A stretch of 61,329 bases of DNA, filler included, from Hausera hauseri (taxonomy: Eukaryota), in NCBI GenBank assembly GCA_046269625.1. It is 12 parts of 12 records of this genome, joined end to end, with 100 filler letters (N's around TTAATTAATTAA, not from the genome) between each part and the next. Parts side by side here need not be neighbours in the genome. Positions count along the whole stretch, not along the records: positions 6,559 to 13,786 come from JBJURY010029449.1; 11 more parts are not named here. One strand, written 5' to 3'. Shown here piece by piece: positions 6,559 to 51,552 of this stretch. The translations under genes and the position numbers were made by a program. The number at the start of each line of letters is the position of its first letter. Position 1 is the stretch's first letter. Under the pieces are notes generated by a model, which was not told the origin of the DNA, did not search any database, and was given only the letters and a program-made list of their open reading frames with translations.

Positions 6559-6618
<60 letters not shown>

Positions 6619-7296
6619 GCTATATAGTACTCTCCCTTCCCTTCCATCCCATTCCCTTCTGGACCTTTGGACGATCAACACCAACGCTCTCTAGTAGTTT
6701 TTTCAAAGTCATGCAAAAGACGACATCGAATCCTTCCACGATCGCGCAAGAGTACTGGAACTGGAATGTCGGAGTTGAAAGCCTGCACAGGATAATGCTT
6801 TGTTAATCACTAGATTGAATTGCTTCCCTGGCCGCCTTGCTCACATGTGGTTCATGGTTGCTTACCAATTGACCCAGGACCCAGATTGCATGCCCAACTG
6901 CTTGGGCTACAAGGACACAATCAATGCCATCAAAAAAGGTAAAATGCATTTGTTAACTTTCTTAATTAACTGCAAGCTATTTTGTTGATTCAATTTAGAT
7001 AGAGAAGGACAAGTTTAACATCCCCGTCCCATTTTCATCTTTCGATACCTTGGGAAACTCAATATAGAGTCTAAATAAACTTGGGCTGTTCACCTGACAG
7101 CCACAAAGGTGAAGTAAGCTCGAGGTAACCGCTTTCTGTCTGTCGATATAAAATAAATTATTACTATACCATCTTAACCTTGGTAATCTGGCAAAAATTC
7201 AGTTAGAGAAACTTTATGTCTTTCAAAATAACATGTTAAGATTTTTTTCTAGTAGTGTCTTCCATCTTCACATAAAACTTGTTAGAAACAATATGC

Positions 7297-8297
7297 CGAC
7301 AGAAGAAGGAAAAATTTTGAAAATGGAAACAAAATGGCGTCGGCTATGTGTGAATGGCCAATGGGCCTGTGGAGCTTGCTAAGGAAACAAAATAGTGGTT
7401 TCATTCCTTTTAGCAGTGAAGAAGGGAAAATTTTGAAAAAGGAAACAAAATGGCGGCGGCTATGTGCGAATGACTAATAGGCCTGCGGAGCTTGCTGGGG
7501 AAACAAAATGGCGGTTTCATTCCTTTTAGCAGTGAAGAAGGGAAAATTTAGAAAAAGGAAACAAAATGGCGGCGGCTCTGTGCGAATAACCAATGGGCCT
7601 GTGGAGCTTGCTGGGGAAACAAAATAGCGGTTTCACCACTTTCAGCAGTGAAGAAGGGAAAATTTTGAAAAAAGGAAACAAAATGGCGGCGGCTCTGTGC
7701 GAATAACCAATGGGCCTGCGGAGCTTGCTGGGGAAACAAAATAGCGGTTTCACCACTTTCAGCAGTGAAGAAGGGAAAATTTTGAAAAAAAGGAAACAAA
7801 ATGGCGGCGGCTCTGTGCGAATAACCAATGGGCCTGCGGAGCTTGCTGGGGAAACAAAATGGCGGTTTCACTACTTTCAGCAGTGAAGAAGGAAAAATTT
7901 TGAAAAAAAGGAAACAAAATGGCGGCGGCTCTGTGCGAATGTCTAATGGGCCTGTGGAGCTTGCTGGGGAAACAAAATGGCGGTTTCATTCCTTTTAGCA
8001 GTGACGAAGGGAAAATTTTGAAAAAGGAAACAAAATGGCGGCGGCTCTGTGCGAATGTCCAATGGGCCTGTGGAGCTTGCTGGGGAAACAAAATGATGGT
8101 TTCATTCCTTTTAGCAGTGAAGAAGGGAAAATTTTGAAAAAAGGAAACAAAATGGCGGCGGCTCTGTGCGAATGACCAATGGGCCTGCGGAGCTTGCTGG
8201 GGAAACAAAATGGCGGTTTCATTCCTTTTAGCAGTGAAGAAGGAAAAATTTTGAGAAAGGAAACAAAATGGCGGCGGCTCTATGTGAATGGCCAATG
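7297..8297. repeat. Tandem repeat, 116-118 bp unit, ~8.5 copies
   Basis: Anchor AGCAGTGA at 7412, 7528, 7644, 7761, 7879, 7997, 8113 and 8230. Each unit has GGAAACAAAAT(G/A)GCGG twice and usually a CCAAT. Confidence 0.95.
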
Positions 8298-8454
8298 TTC
8301 CGAAAAGCATTAAGATACACTTCACTGTGCACTCAATCAATCTCAAAGGTGCTTTTAAGCAACAAAATGGCGGTATTCCCAATGGGCCTGTAGAGTTTGC
8401 TGGGGAAACAAAATGGCGCTTTGACTACCTAATAGAATATAGAGTAATACTACC

Positions 8455-9200
8455 GTGCTGGCCTGTCGTGGTAACAGGCCAGTGGTCCACCAAAGAATAG
8501 GCTTTCCTTTTGCCTTTGACATCCTTCCTAGGACTCCCAGGTTTGGGAGGGGGGGGGGTGACCCTGCTGGCCTGTCATGGGTCCATGGTAACAGGCCGCA
8601 GGTCCACCGGAGCATAGGCTTTCCTTTCCAAAAGACCCTTTGACATCCTTCCTCGGGCTCCCAGGTTTGGGGGCCTGGCATCCATGGGGGGTCTAGGGGG
8701 GTGACCCTGCTGGCCTGGTCCGGCCGCAGGTCCACCGGAACATAGGCTTTCCTTTCGAAAAGGTATGCCTTTGACATCCTTCCTCGGGCTCCCAGGTTTG
8801 GGGGGCCTGGCATCCATGGGGGGTGACCCTGCTGGCCTGTCATGGGCCCATGGTAACAGGCAGCAGGTCCACCGGAGCATAGGCTTTCCTTTCGAAAAGG
8901 TATGCCTTTGACATCCTTCCTCGGGCTCCCAGGTTTGGAGGGTCCTGGCATCCATGGGGGGTCCATCCTGCTGGCACGGGCGTCAGTCGTAGGGCTCCCA
9001 GGTTTGGGGGGGTGACCCTGCTGGCGTGTCATGGGTCCATGGTAACAGACCGCAGGTCCACCGGAGCATAGTCCTTCCTCGGGCTCCCAGGTTTGGAGGG
9101 GCCTGGCATCCATGGGGGGTCCATCCTGCTGGCACGGGCGTCATCCATGGGGGGTCCATCGACCGTCCATCCGTCCGAGGGCTCCCAGGCTTGGGAGGGC
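8455..9200. repeat. GC-rich modular tandem repeat (~120-190 bp variable units)
   Basis: Recurring modules GGTGACCCTGCTGGC, CCATGGTAACAG, GCAGGTCCACCGGAGCATAG and CTCGGGCTCCCAGGTTTGG, about 5 times each. Confidence 0.9.
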
Positions 9201-9419
9201 AGGTCCACCAGAGAAGAGGCAAGGTTTGCCTTGGGTCCAAGCATCCAAGTCCAGCGGGGTTCCTTCGAGGTCCGGCTTCCGCACCCATCTCCTCCTTCCT
9301 GGCCACTGGAACGCAGTTCTCCAAGGAGCGGCTCTTCCATCAGAGGGGATCCACCATCCCTCCATCCAGGGAAAGGCTGATTAAAGTTGGTTGTGAACTG
9401 AATTATATGATATATAAAG

Positions 9420-10781
9420 CTCTTCCGGAATACTGGTGACTGGATTTTTCTATTTCATTTTTCTTCCAGATTTGATTTTTAGTTTAGTAAAACTGTCACA
9501 ATAAGCTTCTAAGTTGCCAAAAAAAATGAGTATGTACTAATTATGCAACAGGGTAAGATACGAGGATATTTTCGTGTTTTTTGCCAGGTCCTCTCAGCAA
9601 TGGGAGGCGAGATTAGGATTTTAGCGCCATCAGCATGTGTCAAAGAGTGCGTCAACCCATCATTAGCAATCCTGGCAGCGAGAGAAGTATATAATAATAC
9701 AAAAATTTAAAAAAATATAAATGCAACCCGTCCATTTGCTATATATTAATAATACAAAGTATAAAAATACCTTTTTATTCGTTGGTTCCGCCCACTGTGC
9801 ACTTGGAAACTGCTACAACGCCCACTCCAGGACAATCGTGTTTATTACCTCTTCCAATACTTTCAAACCCTTCTAGGATGGTGGATTATCAAAAAATATA
9901 AGAAAAATATAAGAAAAAAATATAAAAATATATAAATCCGACAACTTTGGCGCCTAATATTAGAAAAAAATACAAATCCGACACCTTTGGCACCTCGCTG
10001 CACATTGTTACACACTTTACCAGCATAATAATATGTCCAAACCATCCAACATAAACTTTGCTATATATTAATAAAAATATTATAATAAAAAATATGAAAA
10101 AATATATAAAAAATGCTTTTTTTTCAGATTTAATTTTTGGTTCAGAAAAACTCTTCCGGAATACTGGTGACTGGGATTTTCTTTCAGATTTAAATTTTGA
10201 TTTATTTTCAGCTTTCACATTAGGCTTCTAAGTTGCCAAACAGGGTATTTTTGTCTGAGCTGTGAAGAGGGTGTGTTTTTGCCAGGTCCTCTCAGCAATG
10301 GAAGGCGAGATTAGTGTTTTAGCGGCATCAGCAAGTGTCGAAGACGCGTCAACCCATCATTAGCAATCCTGGCAGCGAGAGAAGTATATAATAATACAAA
10401 AATTAAAAAAATATAAATTCGACCCATCCATTTGCTATATATTAATAATACAAAGTATAAAAAATACCTTTTTATTCGTTGGTTCCGCCCACTGTGCACT
10501 TGGAAACTGCTACAACGCCCACTCCAGAACAATCGTGTTTATTACCTCTTCCAATACTTTCAAACCCTTCTAGGATGGTGGATTATCAAAAAATATAAGA
10601 AAAATNNNNNNNNNNNNNNNNNNNNNNNNNNNNNNNNNNNNNNNNNNNNNNNNNNNNNNNNNNNNNNNNNNNNNNNNNNNNNNNNNNNNNNNNNNNNNNN
10701 NNNNNAAATGCTTTTTTTTCAGATTTAATTTTTGGTTCAGAAAAACTCTTCCGGAATACTGGTGACTGGGATTTTCTTTCA
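9420..10781. repeat. ~0.7-kb tandem duplication, collapsed at an assembly gap
   Basis: CTCTTCCGGAATACTGGTGACTGG at ~9420, ~10151 and ~10747. The segment 9581-9907 is nearly identical to 10279-10605. Confidence 0.9.
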
Positions 10782-10796
10782 GGTACATTGAAAACA

Positions 10797-11210
10797 TTAA
10801 TCTAATGACTGGATTAAATCAACACCTGAGGGAGATTGGGTATCTATCTATCATCAAGTCATCCATTGTACTGTCTAGCCGTGGTTCATCTTCTATGCTG
10901 AGTTGGCAAAGATTTAAGATACACTGATTTTTTCAAAGCTGATTTTTTCAAAGCTGATTTTCCATTGCTGTACGTCGGTTTCAATTTTCAAACCATGCCT
11001 GTTTTATCACATATGAGAAGCAGAACAGATTTGACTTTCAGTTTCTGAGTACAGACCCAATATTTCTTCTTAAAAATCTGTGATATATCAACTGGAATTG
11101 CACATAACTCAACAACTGGTTTCATGATAGTTTGAGGTGACAAGACTGGATTAAATCAACACCTGAGGGAGATTTGGGTATCTGTCATCAAGTCATCCAT
11201 TGTACTATCT
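10797..11210. repeat. Intergenic repeat module, also present at ~12560-12972
   Basis: Shared blocks GACTGGATTAAATCAACACCTGAGGG, AAGATACACTGATTTTTT and GAACAGATTTGACTTTCAGTTTC. Confidence 0.85.
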
Positions 11211-11385
11211 ATCCAGTGCGGATAAAGATTTCAGCACCGATACAAAAAAAATGTTTTACCCAACCTTGGATCAAACACATTCATTTTTCACTTTACATTT
11301 TGGATTGATTTTTTTTTTCTTTTCCCTGATCCAACATTGATTCCAAGATATTCTTTTTTTTTTTAAAAAAAAAAAATCTTTCTCC

Positions 11386-11453
11386 CGCGCATTCCCTTTT
11401 GCGCAGCGGCAGCGGGCTATAAAAGCGCGCCGCGAATCCCTTTCCTCTCATTC
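11386..11453 (+). promoter_or_regulatory. Core promoter of array gene 1
   Basis: CGCGCA...TGCGCA, then TATAAAAG at 11418-11425 and Inr-like TCATTC at 11448. Same layout as genes 2 and 3. Confidence 0.65.
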
Positions 11454-11478
11454 TCATTCTCGCACTCTCCGCATCCAG

Positions 11479-11820
11479 ATGTCCCGCGACTACGTGTCCG
11501 AATACTTGGCCGCCCACTTCCCTCACATCCAACGGACCCATGAAGAAAACGTACGATTCTTCAACAGCCTGGACCACGACTGGCCGGTCCCCCCCCGCCC
11601 GGGCGAGACTCTCTGGGAGGGTATCCGTCGGCGGTCAGCCAACATCCGAGAGCGGGTGCACCGCCACTTTTACCCCGAGGACTTTCCCGTAGACGACCCC
11701 CGTCCTCGACCCGCAGGCGCACCCCCTCCATATCCGTCCTCGCCCGCACCGCCTCCCACCGAGTTGGCGTACGTCACGCAGGGGGGCCGGAGGATCCTTT
11801 TCCGGATGCGGCGAGAGTGA
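11479..11820 (+). CDS. Array gene 1: 113-aa proline-rich protein with PPPY and conserved C-terminus
   Basis: Intact GC-rich ORF after TATA/Inr. C-terminus LAYVTQGGRRILFRMRRE aligns with genes 2 and 3. Confidence 0.7.
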   Translation: MSRDYVSEYLAAHFPHIQRTHEENVRFFNSLDHDWPVPPRPGETLWEGIRRRSANIRERVHRHFYPEDFPVDDPRPRPAGAPPPYPSSPAPPPTELAYVTQGGRRILFRMRRE

Positions 11821-11848
11821 TCACCCATGGTTTTAAAAAAAAAAAATT

Positions 11849-11908
11849 AAAAAAAGCCCAAAGAGAAGGGTCCCTCGGAGGAGGGATTCTTCTCTTTGGG
11901 CTTTTTTT
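11849..11908 (+). other. 3' hairpin 1: 28-bp stem, GGAG loop
   Basis: Arms 11849-11876 and 11881-11908 pair fully when two G-U pairs are allowed (plus-strand RNA only). Ends in a T run. Confidence 0.85.
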
Positions 11909-12050
11909 TGTGTTTTACACAGACCCAACGTTGGAAAACATAATTTCACACACTGCTCTCGTGTCGATAAATATTTTTTCGATGCAAAAAAAAATGTTTT
12001 TTCACCCAACGTTGGAAAAAAAAAGATCCTTTCACACGCGGCTCGGCTCC

Positions 12051-12117
12051 CGCGCACGTGCATCTGCGCAAGGCTTCCCCTATAAATAGCGGACCCACAC
12101 AGCCAGCGAGATTCATT
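12051..12117 (+). promoter_or_regulatory. Core promoter of array gene 2
   Basis: CGCGCA...TGCGCA, TATAAATA at 12081-12088, TCATT at 12113, GCCATG start context. Confidence 0.65.
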
Positions 12118-12129
12118 TTCTCTCTCGCC

Positions 12130-12375
12130 ATGTCCCAGTCAACACCTCCACCACCCGACGCAGAGAGGACGCTCCCGCCGGGTCCTCGCTGGATCCCTGG
12201 ACCCCGATGTCGGATCAGACGGAGGAGGAGCAGGGTGAGGCGGAGGTTGTTGGAGTCTCCGCCGGCCTACCAACTCCCGGACCTCCCGATCCTGTTGGAG
12301 AACTGGGATCTCGAAGAGATCGTAGTCCTCACCCCGACGGGGGAGAGAATTGTCTTTCGCCGAGTGCGAGAGTAA
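12130..12375 (+). CDS. Array gene 2: 81-aa protein MSQSTPPPP...VRRRLLESPPAY...IVVLTPTGERIVFRRVRE
   Basis: ATG in GCCATG context downstream of TATA/Inr. Clear paralog of gene 3. Confidence 0.75.
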   Translation: MSQSTPPPPDAERTLPPGPRWIPGPRCRIRRRRSRVRRRLLESPPAYQLPDLPILLENWDLEEIVVLTPTGERIVFRRVRE

Positions 12376-12415
12376 GTAACCCTCACTCTAATCGATCCGT
12401 AGCGATGTGAGGGGG

Positions 12416-12471
12416 AAAAATGGCTTAAAGAAAGGACGAAAGGGGGTCCGTCCTTTCTTTAAGCCATTTTT
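12416..12471 (+). other. 3' hairpin 2: perfect 23-bp stem, 10-nt loop
   Basis: AAAAATGGCTTAAAGAAAGGACG / CGTCCTTTCTTTAAGCCATTTTT, preceded by a smaller CCCTCAC...GTGAGGG stem. Confidence 0.9.
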
Positions 12472-13127
12472 TTTGGGTAGCGTGACGGACCAACGTTGGA
12501 AGTTCCCATTAGAAATCGACTCGATTTTGTTTATTTTTTAATTTGGATGAAATAGATTTCTTAGTCATCAATTGTACTGTCCAGCTTAAGATACACTGAT
12601 TTTTTTCAAAGCTGTCTGAAAAAAATTGATTTTCCATTGTTGTACGTTGTTTAAGTTCTCAATTTCAAATCACATATGAGAAGCAGAACAGATTTGACTT
12701 TCAGTTTCCGAGCACAGAGCCAATATTTCTTCTTAAAAAATCTGTGATGTGGAGTTGTACATAACTCAACAACTGGTTTCATGATAGTTTGAGATGGCTC
12801 TAACAAATGCCCACATTGATCTAATGACTGGATTAAATCAACACCTGAGGGTATCGGTCATCAATTGTACTGTCCAGCCGTGGTTCATCTTCTATGCTGA
12901 GTTGGCAAAGATTTAAGATACACTGATTTTTTTCAAAGCTGTGAGAAACAGAACAGATTTGACTTTCAGTTTCGGAGGAGGGATTTCTTCTCTTTGGGCC
13001 TTTTTTTTTGTGTCTCACGCAGACCCAACGTTGGAAACGTCCTTTGACACACTGCTCTCGGATCCGATCCCCCCCAAAAAAAAATGTTTTTTTTTTACCC
13101 AACGTTGGAAAGAAACATAAAATCCAC

Positions 13128-13193
13128 CGCGCACTCCCGTCTGCGCAGCGCTTCCTCTATAAAGAGCGGACCCACACAGCCAGCGAGATCATT
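13128..13193 (+). promoter_or_regulatory. Core promoter of array gene 3
   Basis: CGCGCA...TGCGCA, TATAAAGA at 13158-13165, TCATT at 13189. Confidence 0.65.
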
Positions 13194-13205
13194 TTCTCTC
13201 TCGCC

Positions 13206-13511
13206 ATGTCCCAGTCAACACCTCCTCCTCCATCCGACGCAGAGATGACGACCGACGCGGAGATGACGACCCCGCCGGGTCCCCGCCCGGTCCCTTCCCC
13301 ACCCCTCCCTCGGCTTCGGATCCCCGAGCGCCACGTCCCGAGGAGGAGCGGCGTGAGGCGGCGGCTGTTCGAGTCCCCGCCGACCTACCAGCCCCCGCCG
13401 GCCTACGAGCCCCCGGACCTCCCAACCCTGTTCGAGAGCCGAGATCTCGAAGAGATCGTGCTCGTCACCCGGGCGGGGGAGAGAATCGTCTATCGCCGAG
13501 TGCGAGAGTAA
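13206..13511 (+). CDS. Array gene 3: 101-aa protein MSQSTPPPP...VRRRLFESPPTYQPPPAY...IVLVTRAGERIVYRRVRE
   Basis: Paralog of gene 2. The net length difference is a multiple of three (DAEMTT duplicated, PPxY duplicated). Confidence 0.75.
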   Translation: MSQSTPPPPSDAEMTTDAEMTTPPGPRPVPSPPLPRLRIPERHVPRRSGVRRRLFESPPTYQPPPAYEPPDLPTLFESRDLEEIVLVTRAGERIVYRRVRE

Positions 13512-13551
13512 GTCACCCTCACCCTAATCGATCCGTAGCGACGTGAGGGGG

Positions 13552-13609
13552 AAAAATGGCTCAAAGAAAGGACCGAGGGGGGTCGCGGTCCTTTCTTTGA
13601 GCCATTTTT
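13552..13609 (+). other. 3' hairpin 3: perfect 24-bp stem, 10-nt loop
   Basis: AAAAATGGCTCAAAGAAAGGACCG / CGGTCCTTTCTTTGAGCCATTTTT. Confidence 0.9.
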
Positions 13610-13886
13610 TTTGGGGAGCGCGACGGACCAACGTTGGAAGTAAGTCCCCATTCGAAATCGACAGGATTTTGTTTATTTTTTAATTTGGATATTGATAAAA
13701 AAAAAATATTAATAGAAATATTAATAAAAATATTATAATAATAATAATAAAAATATCATCTTTGGCACCTCACTGCAAAGTTTAGANNNNNNNNNNNNNN
13801 NNNNNNNNNNNNNNNNNNNNNNNNNNNNNNTTAATTAATTAANNNNNNNNNNNNNNNNNNNNNNNNNNNNNNNNNNNNNNNNNNNN

Positions 13887-24046: not shown

Positions 24047-25232
24047 TTAAGCGGGGTAATCCATTAACACTTATCTCGTTTTTAAAATTTCAATTATAGA
24101 GTATTATTTGGCTTACACAACAACTTATAAATGATCCAATTTAATTCTAACTAAAGAGGTCCGTTTTTCGCAAATTCAAACTGGCCACCATCGAAAATAC
24201 TGGGACTTAAAACTAGATTCGTTCAAAAAATTCTCTGGCATGATGGTTATTTTCAAAATCCGCCATTAACGGCTTCCCTGTGACCATCCGCCCGGCAACG
24301 GTTATATTTAAATATGTTCAGCGAAAGTGTTGGAACTTGAACAGATTATTTTTGTAAGTACTATTAAAGGCTGTGGAATTAACTATTCCGACATAATGGG
24401 TGTGGGCGTGTGACTGAGGAAAAGGTTGTCTTGAATGTGCAACAACATTCCTCTGGGAATGGACAATGTCTTTGTCACGACTTGTTTGGTGGGGTATTTT
24501 GCGTTCGCTGTAGTCAAGGCTTTTTTGTGGGCTAGAGAAATGGCTGGATTTAATTTGGCTTTCCTGACCACCAGGACGGCGGACGTTATAATTGATTTAT
24601 AACCGAGCGCGGGGTCGTCGGCTATGACGTTGAACGAGTCTTTAGAAGGGGTGAGTTTGATCTTTACGTCCACACCGTTCAGCATTGGGTGAAAATGTCG
24701 CAGTGTAACTTTCCCATCATATCCACTTTTCGACTACCCGCAGCAAACTCACGACGCGTTTTCAGTCCCGCATTTGAATCGGCTTTAGCTTCATCAAACA
24801 ATTTTGGCGTGTTATTGTAGTATAGAGCTACCGTCAGGTGACCCCTTTTGGCTTCGCGACTGTAATTTAAAACGGACTTGAGGTAAGATCTGTAAGGGTG
24901 TGTTTTCACTTGGCGTGATTAACAGGGCCACTTGAGAAAATAAACTGTGCAAATAATTGTTGACCGGGGGCCACTTCAGCACCGTCAGGTAAATTGTCGC
25001 CATTGGCCAAAGCGACTTTGGCTCTCACGTGTACAAGAGTATTAAACAAATCTAGATACTCTTCGCCGTTTCCCGATATTATAAATTCTATGGGTGCCCT
25101 GGGCGCGAGAGAAGCGAGAGGGTGAATTTCTACAAACTGTCCTTCCTCTACCACCGTTTATGTCGGAGGAACGCTAAACAAATCCAAACCTGAATGGAGA
25201 CACTCGCACGAGCCGGGGTGTATCAAAACCAT
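24047..25232 (-). pseudogene. Maverick major capsid protein (hexon/PY)
   Basis: SCECLHSGLDLFSVPPT...PIEFIISGNGEEYLDL...NNYLHSLFSQV...PYRSYLKSVLNY...LNGVDVKIKL, with several frameshifts. Confidence 0.92.
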
Positions 25233-25237
25233 GTCCT

Positions 25238-25713
25238 TTAATCAAAGATGTCTGAATGCTTCTTTCCTCGTCGTTTCTTGGACTCGTTGTGAGAACTGTT
25301 CTGGACGAATGCTGGTTTTATTCTTTTATTAACGGGTTCGCCTGGCGGTGCGGCTTTTCTTATACGACGCATGCCGCCACCCGATTGGTAACCGGTCACG
25401 TGATTCACGGCTCTTTGCAACAGCCTCTGTCTGGCCTCTTTGGCTCGATCTCGGAAGGATTCGCAGACATTTCTACATGTTAATGAGTCCTGGGCCACTT
25501 GCAAACCCATCCCGACTCCTTCCCTGATTATAGCTTTGCCACCTGTCTTTAACCACAGGAGTATCATTCAACCCAACCTACTAAAGAAACTACTGATGCC
25601 TCTTCCGCGTTGACTTCTACTGCCGACAAAAACGGAAATTCCATCTCCTGCTTGACTGCTGCAAAAGTCTTCATAAACTTAGCGCTTCGATGAAAAGGAG
25701 TGCGTCTGACCAT
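25238..25713 (-). pseudogene. Maverick pX/core-like protein
   Basis: QAGDG...QRGRGISSFFSRLG*MILLWLKTGGKAI...QSGGG and a basic tail ending DIFD. Typical position between penton and hexon. Confidence 0.8.
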
Positions 25714-25717
25714 TCTT

Positions 25718-26481
25718 TTATTGCAAATCGGAATGTTTCCTGGGTCGAAAATGTAACGTGACCACTGAGGAACCGTTCATGCATGGGATCTTTTGTCCCA
25801 GGTCGTTGGTTAAAAGCATTTCCACGTTGTCAAAGGAAAATCGACTCAGCGGCAGGTAGTGGGGTTTGTCGTAGATCCGAAACACGGAGGTCAAATTTCT
25901 CACCAAAGTGGGGACCGTCCATAACAAACGCACCATGACATCTCCGACGGGTCTCGCTGCAACGATATCATAGTACACGTACACGTTTCGTATGTTGCTA
26001 TCCAAATTGTCCTGCGCCTTACGCAGTTGAAGATGGTCCTGGTCCGTTATGTAGGTTTTTGACAGTCCCAATATATTTTTCAACTTTTCGCTGATGATAA
26101 CGTCCACCCCCGACTCGAATCTTTCCAGTAAGGTGGTTTTCTGCGTTTTGTGGCAATGGATTTTCAACAGGACTGGATCACCTCCCTTCGCGCGTGAGCT
26201 AAACTATCTGCTTAATTCGTCACAAAGATCCGCCGGCGACTTGTAGTGGCCGCAATTTCAAACGACGGTTTGGTGCCGTTCGCGTGTGGAAGGTAATGTA
26301 ACCACACTTCATTCTCTAAGACATTAAAGTAACTGTTTGGAAATTCAGTCTCCACCAAACCCACTTCGTATTGTGAATTCAAGTCTATGGTTTTCGGGAG
26401 TTTCACGTAAAAATGTTCGGGTCCATTATCCGGAAACGTTTTCATGGAGGCGTTGCTTGGCAGCGTCACGTAAAAACTCAT
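25718..26481 (-). pseudogene. Maverick minor capsid protein (penton)
   Basis: FYVTLPSNASMKTFPDN...YEVGLVE N-terminus and VYVYYDIV..VGD..LL..FDKPHY-like..VVTLHFR C-terminus. Frameshift near 26200. Confidence 0.9.
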
Positions 26482-50821: not shown

Positions 50822-51552
50822 AATAGGTCAAACCTGAGACTGTGCAATAATGCTAAAAAGCTAGTTACATATGCTAGTAAGGCCCAGTTTAAAGAGAGCA
50901 TTATTATAGATAATGACTTGGTTGCTGTTCGTCTGGGTAAAGATATGGTCACCTTAGATAGATCTTCATACATTGGTCAGGCCGTACTTCATCTATCCAA
51001 TTTACGGATGTATGAGCTGAATTACATAGAGTTGGAGACATATAGGCACCAGTTTCAGTGTGAACTTAATATCGTTGCCGGTGACACAGACAGTTTTTTA
51101 TTGAATGCCGTGGTATTGATTTGAGATCGTAACTGTTACCAGCAATGATAGCTAATGAACAGCTAGATACATCGAACTATGACAAGAGTGATCAGCTATA
51201 CTCGACTTGCTTCGCAGTTGTAATTGGGAAATTTAAAGACGAAAGTAACGGCTGCGTTCAGTATGAAGAGGGGATTTTTCCACGGCTAAAATCTTATGCA
51301 CTGAAAACCCAAACCAAACCAGTCCTCAAATGTAAGGGCGTAAATCTCAAGCAGACAGACTTGCAGTTCAGTAACTACCTACAAGCATATGAAACCGGTT
51401 GTGAGACCATGGTGAACGAGGAGCAAATTGGCAGCAAAAATCACCATCTTATGACAATCAGTTCAAAGAAGAAAGCGTTGGATCCCTTTGACGACAAACG
51501 GCATTGGATTGAGAAAAACAGATCAGTTGCTTACGGACATTATTGTATTTAA
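50822..51552 (+). pseudogene. Maverick protein-primed PolB, C-terminal part
   Basis: YIGQAVL.LS..MY, DTDS, DTSNY, IGKFKDE, KSY, KCKGV, DDKR...YGHY*. Confidence 0.95.

Follow-up and report, generated by a model that had tools for sequence, protein, structure and literature searches.

Hairpins that define mRNA 3' ends have been described for IIV-6, in which hairpins following the ORFs of a large DNA virus replace poly(A) signals and the mRNAs are non-polyadenylated (PMC5923455). Under the mimivirus hairpin rule, palindromes at gene ends set the 3' end in the cytoplasm, where a viral RNase III cuts inside the hairpin and a viral enzyme polyadenylates the product (PMC4402537). Among roadblock systems, the yeast Pol I Reb1 terminator places a T-rich release tract 5' of the Reb1 protein site (PMC8701712), and yeast Pol II piles up within ~25 nt of a bound roadblock protein (PMC6314782). 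Baculovirus late RNA polymerase is associated with T-tracts at gene ends, and in AcMNPV a canonical poly(A) signal accompanies ~80% of the transcript ends (PMC8789824). Finally, nrEVEs of spiders have been assigned to a Lefavirales-type virus, in a paper whose main text does not mention hairpins, polyadenylation or palindromes (PMC12219104).

The locus studied here carries a gene-end element made up of a long stem, a T7-10 tract and the palindrome CAAYRTTG (the box) 16 nt beyond the last T. One close parallel is IIV-6, although its hairpins contain TAATG/CATTA and the available text mentions neither a T-tract nor a spaced box (PMC5923455); in addition, the virus here looks Lefavirales-like. 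The TAATG/CATTA pair is absent from the 14 stems analysed, which are closed by an A-tract, GGC or GCC, and a T-tract. A downstream box is likewise not mentioned in the accessible part of the mimivirus report (PMC4402537). The T-tract lies a fixed 16 nt 5' of the motif in 14/14 cases, resembling Reb1/TTF-I-type roadblocks, but the yeast examples, as far as the available text describes them, work without a long RNA stem and roadblocked Pol II RNAs are degraded, whereas the putative products here would be mRNAs (PMC8701712, PMC6314782). Baculoviruses belong to a related order, yet no stem or box is described for late termination in the part of the report available (PMC8789824). The element has more structure than was noticed at first and belongs, as a variant, with viral gene ends defined by hairpins. 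We favour the view, with a probability of about 0.58, that this three-part element follows a subset of genes of a likely spider-type baculovirus-like virus and terminates their mRNAs at the U-run, no poly(A) signal being needed. No earlier description of the element was found in the literature searched (most subscription journals lie outside that search).

Hairpins after three related ORFs

The window, the whole 61,329-nucleotide stretch of DNA analysed, consists of short, unrelated contigs strung together with N spacers between them; of these, only positions 6559-13786 (JBJURY010029449.1, here C29449) are relevant. An earlier note on this DNA had recognised the 3' hairpins, which are real, but had missed the box, the half copy, the small hairpins beside hairpins 2 and 3, and the unrelated-contig layout. 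The features of this part of the contig, other than the boxes and a promoter at the left contig end, are as follows.

10770..11230, no strand: scrambled spacer repeat, common to other virus-like contigs (second block at ~12550-12970)
11387..11423, + strand: promoter-like block of ORF 1, GCGCA-N6-T-N-TGCGCA then CTATAAA
11479..11820, + strand: ORF 1, 113 aa, proline-rich, with the family C-terminal motif
11849..11909, + strand: hairpin 1 (type A), A7, 21-pair stem with two G-U pairs, GGAG loop, T8
12007..12086, + strand: promoter-like block of ORF 2, starting with an extra box copy
12130..12375, + strand: ORF 2, 81 aa, ORF 1 family, GTAAGT overlapping the stop codon
12380..12413, + strand: small hairpin CCCTCAC/GTGAGGG directly 5' of hairpin 2
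12416..12474, + strand: hairpin 2 (type B), A5, perfect 18-pair stem, 10-nt loop, T8
12973..13033, + strand: half copy of hairpin 1 (loop, 3' arm, T9) joined to the spacer repeat
13100..13163, + strand: promoter-like block of ORF 3, starting with an extra box copy
13206..13511, + strand: ORF 3, 101 aa, ORF 1 family, GTAAGT overlapping the stop codon
13516..13549, + strand: small hairpin directly 5' of hairpin 3
13552..13612, + strand: hairpin 3 (type B), A5, perfect 19-pair stem, T8

A GCGCA...TGCGCA block, a TATA box and a TCATT motif lie upstream of each of the three ORFs. None of the three proteins has a Pfam match, and that of ORF 3 has no Atlas match; the proline-rich motif of ORF 1 is one we take to be of PPxY type. 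The GTAAGT motifs on the ORF 2 and ORF 3 stops (12372-12377 and 13508-13513) have no good acceptor evident, while introns are clearly present at this position in a related virus family.

The observation of the hairpins held up: computed folding of the sense RNA gave z = -10.3, -7.0 and -8.5 for hairpins 1, 2 and 3, with 0/200 shuffles as stable in each case. The sequence also contains both reported differences between hairpins 2 and 3 (a paired T-A/C-G swap and an added C-G pair), and hairpin 1 is indeed completed by two plus-strand G-U pairs, its sense fold being more stable than the antisense (-46.7 versus -40.6 kcal/mol). The distance from stop codon to hairpin had been put at 30-40 nt, which is right for hairpins 2 and 3 (40 nt each, measured to the A-tract) but not for hairpin 1 (28 nt); of the tails reported as U8-9, all three T-tracts are T8 and none is T9.

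Homology and spacer-repeat searches of the same assembly yielded further hairpin units (on C615220, C714898, C58330 and C361929). The 14 hairpins follow at least four different protein families. Twelve of them follow an ORF with matching polarity, and the other two have no preceding ORF, one coming after an ORF-less promoter and one at a contig start. Eleven of the 14 begin 31-78 nt past the stop codon, and one follows a 3'-UTR intron. Introns of the form GTAAGT...CTAAY...polypyrimidine-AG, 113-139 nt in length, occur past the stop in 3/3 paralogues of one family; in the sole complete case, the last exon enters the hairpin without a poly(A) hexamer. Overall, A[AT]TAAA is absent 5' of the stem in 10/14 hairpins. 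In contrast, all four type A hairpins (hairpin 1 included) have ATTAAA or AATAAA 10-15 nt 5' of the stem and a U/GU-rich stretch 3' of it, flanks that fit ordinary polyadenylation as well. The fixed post-ORF position, the fixed polarity and the 10/14 without a hexamer mean that a poly(A)-independent 3'-end signal, one of the readings offered earlier, fits best, with the type A hexamers as the part that does not agree.

The element accompanies a subset of the putative virus genes and is not universal. Within the ORF 1-3 family, three complete paralogues (two on C679496, one on C152286), which have a second promoter type, lack both hairpin and box. Both are also absent from the lef-9, CtIP-like and pif-1 gene ends, and the pif-1 cluster terminates near AATAAA.

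Across the eight type A and B copies, both-sided change is seen in 5/14 pairs and 97% of cells pair, compared with at most 66% in slid controls; the stem shows covariation over the copies. Since the structure was derived from the same sequences and the copies are related, this shows kept symmetry and is silent on which molecule folds. The G-U pairs had been taken as pointing to sense RNA, and while they exist, this argument proved weak: at the hairpin 1 positions two paralogues have U-U/U-U and another has U-U/G-U, and G-U pairs overall number nine in sense versus four in antisense (p=0.13). The sense fold is the more stable in 12/14 hairpins (the copies being non-independent), and DNA folding is almost strand-neutral. 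The position after ORFs is a better argument for an RNA end, as read from the sequence, than the G-U bias.

The box and its 16-nt spacing

In all 14 complete hairpins, on six contigs and across five stem types, CAAYRTTG is separated from the last T by exactly 16 nt. The hairpins were picked by script through the stem end and T-tract, without the box as a criterion; 13 lie on contigs found independently of the box, and one (C198856) was reached via the box pattern. In the window the boxes are:

11926..11933, + strand: box CAACGTTG, 16 nt past the hairpin 1 T-tract
12491..12498, + strand: box 16 nt past hairpin 2, the next 400 nt without TATAAA
13629..13636, + strand: box 16 nt past hairpin 3

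A 15th gene-end hairpin, with a long loop and following a RING-like gene, has by eye a variant box, CAACCTTG, at 16 nt. The half copy at 12973-13033 retains its box at 16 nt although it has lost the fold (z -0.56). When all 109 T6+ tracts on nine contigs were considered, 23 had a box within 40 nt, 17 of which at 16 nt; the remaining six distances were 3, 4, 4, 7, 13 and 27 nt. As the T-tract varies from 7 to 10 and the box nevertheless stays at 16, the distance is set from the last T. The 16-nt spacers themselves differ at a mean of 9.7/16 positions. The spacing could have been inherited from one ancestral cassette.

Neither T6-N16-CAACGTTG (37 matches genome-wide versus 38 for the control) nor the promoter motif GGACCWTTGGACG (26 versus 32) is enriched, and the worth of both motifs rests in their context only. 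Thirteen of the 37 matches are on hairpin contigs, and of the 24 elsewhere none has a hairpin (best -18.6 kcal/mol; three are cut by contig ends). A pattern scan of IMG/VR for the element returned one match, with no visible hairpin in its flank. All matches from the hairpin searches of the assembly fall on four virus-like contigs (search counts being lower bounds), and the alternative that these are dispersed, gene-unlinked MITEs is not supported.

Nine of 26 boxes are off the 16-nt position, and seven of these nine sit 40-193 nt 5' of a TATAAA, which raises the possibility of a promoter role for the box. For 7/17 boxes at 16 nt, there is no TATAAA in the next 400 nt, three of the seven being near contig ends.

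How the element may act

In animals, mRNA 3' ends are almost always specified by either a poly(A) signal or, for histones, a stem-loop. Judged from its position, the element probably defines the mRNA 3' end. The TATA boxes, together with the spliceosomal-type 3'-UTR intron in one family, suggest that host RNA polymerase II would transcribe the hairpin genes. Since the palindrome is also found in promoters, the simplest view is that it is the site of a dimeric DNA-binding protein, and such a protein, once bound to the box DNA, may stall the polymerase about one footprint upstream. The polymerase footprint is ~15 bp, and a base-exact distance from the end of a variable T-tract is as expected from a stalled polymerase. 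The RNA would then be released at the U-tract, on a weak rU:dA hybrid, with the stem either aiding release or shielding the free RNA end. We regard this roadblock mechanism as tentative, a minority possibility. More speculative still, and on present evidence unlikely, is that a nuclear arthropod DNA virus has arrived at a hybrid Pol II terminator, combining a bacterial-style stem and U-tract with a DNA-bound roadblock one footprint downstream. If so, the virus would bypass host cleavage and polyadenylation and still obtain stable mRNAs, and the pure A(n)-T(n) tracts that follow its core genes would represent a reduced version of the signal. A compact ~85-nt element whose stems are interchangeable and whose 16-nt spacing is exact would, if this is true, constitute a new mode of ending mRNAs in the animal nucleus.

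Alternatively, the T-tract could be a terminator for the viral LEF RNA polymerase, which adds poly(A) after U-rich stretches, with the stem modulating this and the box a separate promoter or insulator of the next gene. A lef-9 gene is present in the assembly, and 52% of AcMNPV late 3'-UTR isoforms end near T-rich regions, according to the available part of that report (PMC8789824). Pure A(n)-T(n) tracts follow five ORFs (polB, innexin, RNR small subunit, dUTPase and that of C543047), the first four of which, like the extra boxes that precede TATA boxes, speak for this model. It is nevertheless improbable, since the hairpin genes have TATA promoters and, in one family, spliceosomal-type introns, and since the 16-nt box distance is kept in the 7/17 cases (three near contig ends) that have no TATAAA within 400 nt. 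The tracts themselves, on C92165, C98398, C538564, C255760 and C543047, consist of A30-55, a few bases and T30-50 after the ORF, a templated A-run with fold-back that is usually just 5' of the next TATA box; their lengths may be inflated by assembly.

Cleavage of the stem by RNase III or an Integrator-type nuclease, with the box as an RNA downstream element akin to the histone and snRNA 3' boxes, would suit stems of 13-29 pairs plus an A-U base. A fixed downstream distance is typical of the histone and snRNA boxes, and counts in favour of such a model, as do the hairpin-defined ends reported, in the text available, for IIV-6 (PMC5923455) and mimiviruses (PMC4402537). A DNA-style palindrome that is also found upstream of promoters is difficult to reconcile with an RNA box, and we consider this reading a little less probable than the LEF polymerase one.

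The element might instead act as DNA, as a cruciform and protein site for recombination, cassette duplication or replication, its symmetry being kept by template switching. Gene duplication does copy whole promoter-ORF-hairpin-box cassettes, a hairpin loop (12973) is the site of one junction, long perfect palindromes occur in spacers too, DNA folding is near strand-neutral and the G-U bias is not significant. Template switching, already raised in the earlier note, can explain the paired changes within a family but leaves the fixed 16-nt box spacing unexplained. With 12/14 hairpins following an ORF in matching polarity, and the spacer palindromes devoid of T-tract and box, a DNA role is quite unlikely. 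These spacer palindromes (C361929:4793-4926, C88939 and C553945) have arms of up to ~50 bp. They are reminiscent, we presume, of baculovirus hr repeats.

That the hairpins are pre-miRNA or shRNA-like precursors, as also proposed initially, is scarcely credible: although they are perfect hairpins of 50-60 nt with weak miRNA-shaped Rfam matches, and small RNAs are reported from spider nrEVEs in the accessible part of that study (PMC12219104), all Rfam matches are far below the gathering score (best 32.8 bits versus 80), hairpin length ranges from 34 to 71 nt, and no arm sequence is conserved over the five types, stems and loops varying freely between families.

The virus and the source assembly

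The hairpin genes are likely those of a spider-type baculovirus-like (Lefavirales) virus. No contig carries both hairpin genes and core genes, and the assignment rests on a shared promoter block:

6559..6690, + strand: second promoter type at the left end of the contig, with T56, a TATA-like box and GGACCTTTGGACG

This block recurs 5' of lef-9 (C452280) and on the pif-1 contig (C135929). Of the 26 matches to GGACCWTTGGACG, which lies within the block, 11 lie within 70 nt of both a TATA-like box and a T10+ tract, including those on C29449 and on the lef-9 and pif-1 contigs. Runs of A or T of at least 25 occur on 4/4 core contigs and 2/11 hairpin-set contigs, compared with 0/46 other loci and none on a herpes-like contig. 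CpG o/e is 0.86-1.16 in all these ORFs but one, versus 1.6-1.7 for the herpes-like contig.

Among the core genes, C92165 encodes an intronless 932-aa family B DNA polymerase (polB). It has 65 close relatives, of which those with names come from spider genomes, and it shares 47-56% identity with spider-genome proteins (50% with an Araneus protein). The element would provide a first look at the gene signals of a widespread virus group hitherto recorded from spider genomes. By eye, the polB motifs match the DNAP row of the spider nrEVEs, and the C452280 ORF, which is LEF-9-like with an RNA_pol_Rpb1_2 match, corresponds to their LEF-9 row (PMC12219104 supplement, the portion available). In further likeness to the spider nrEVEs, PIF-1 (above the Pfam cut-off) and a PIF-2-like ORF (below it, E 1.7e-4) are present in the assembly, both off the hairpin contigs. 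No p74 was found in the assembly, and a Pfam search of it for LEF-8 gave no match, the profile being silent in controls as well. None of the RING-like, CtIP-like, 173-aa and polB proteins has a close relative in IMG/VR, and the JGI metagenomes gave distant polB only (21-27% identity, about half of the collection scanned).

A separate 28.6-kb herpes-like contig in the same assembly (C666551) has weak terminase, US22, macro and Ig-domain matches. Its presence in the pool makes the virus link of the hairpin contigs indirect; herpes-like and iridovirus origins were both considered and are not favoured, and C666551 has no such hairpins and a different CpG content.

Four short RING-like proteins (C58330, C615220 and C744196) form one family without close database relatives: a word search found none, RING matches were weak, and a full profile search gave five weak unnamed matches. 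For the 221-aa family, 0/2474 candidates scored. An intronless 127-aa ORF with a SAE2/CtIP C-terminal domain (C368083:1052-1435) lies beside the virus spacer repeat.

Assembly GCA_046269625.1 contains six full COI genes and is therefore a pool of several animals; we take these to be two bivalves, a fish, a crustacean, a spider and a mite or other arthropod. Integrated, partly decayed virus copies are suggested by several features, namely the half hairpin, a LINE-like fragment near 6940-7010, the unit that lacks an ORF and a second, partial copy of the polymerase, a point left unsettled by the uneven read depth (28 to >100 in the probable source run). Four further sequencing runs gave short, near-identical pieces at a depth of 2-4 and were not counted as independent.

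Elsewhere on C29449, an array of ~116-bp repeats occupies 7300-8300, eight of them containing CAAAATGGCGGC, which we presume resembles a YY1 site; GC-rich repeats of ~130 bp follow at 8470-9200 and tandem repeats of ~697 bp at 9450-10760. Fragments on other contigs of the window (24383-26481 and 44139-51552), with one weak DNA_pol_B_2 match, look to us like Polinton/Maverick genes. Broken intronless pieces of cellular DNA polymerase genes adjoin retrotransposon sequence on C49319, C43555, C37445 and C780092, and C698770 carries an intronless 2185-aa DNA polymerase epsilon-like ORF that probably derives from a compact-genome organism in the pool.
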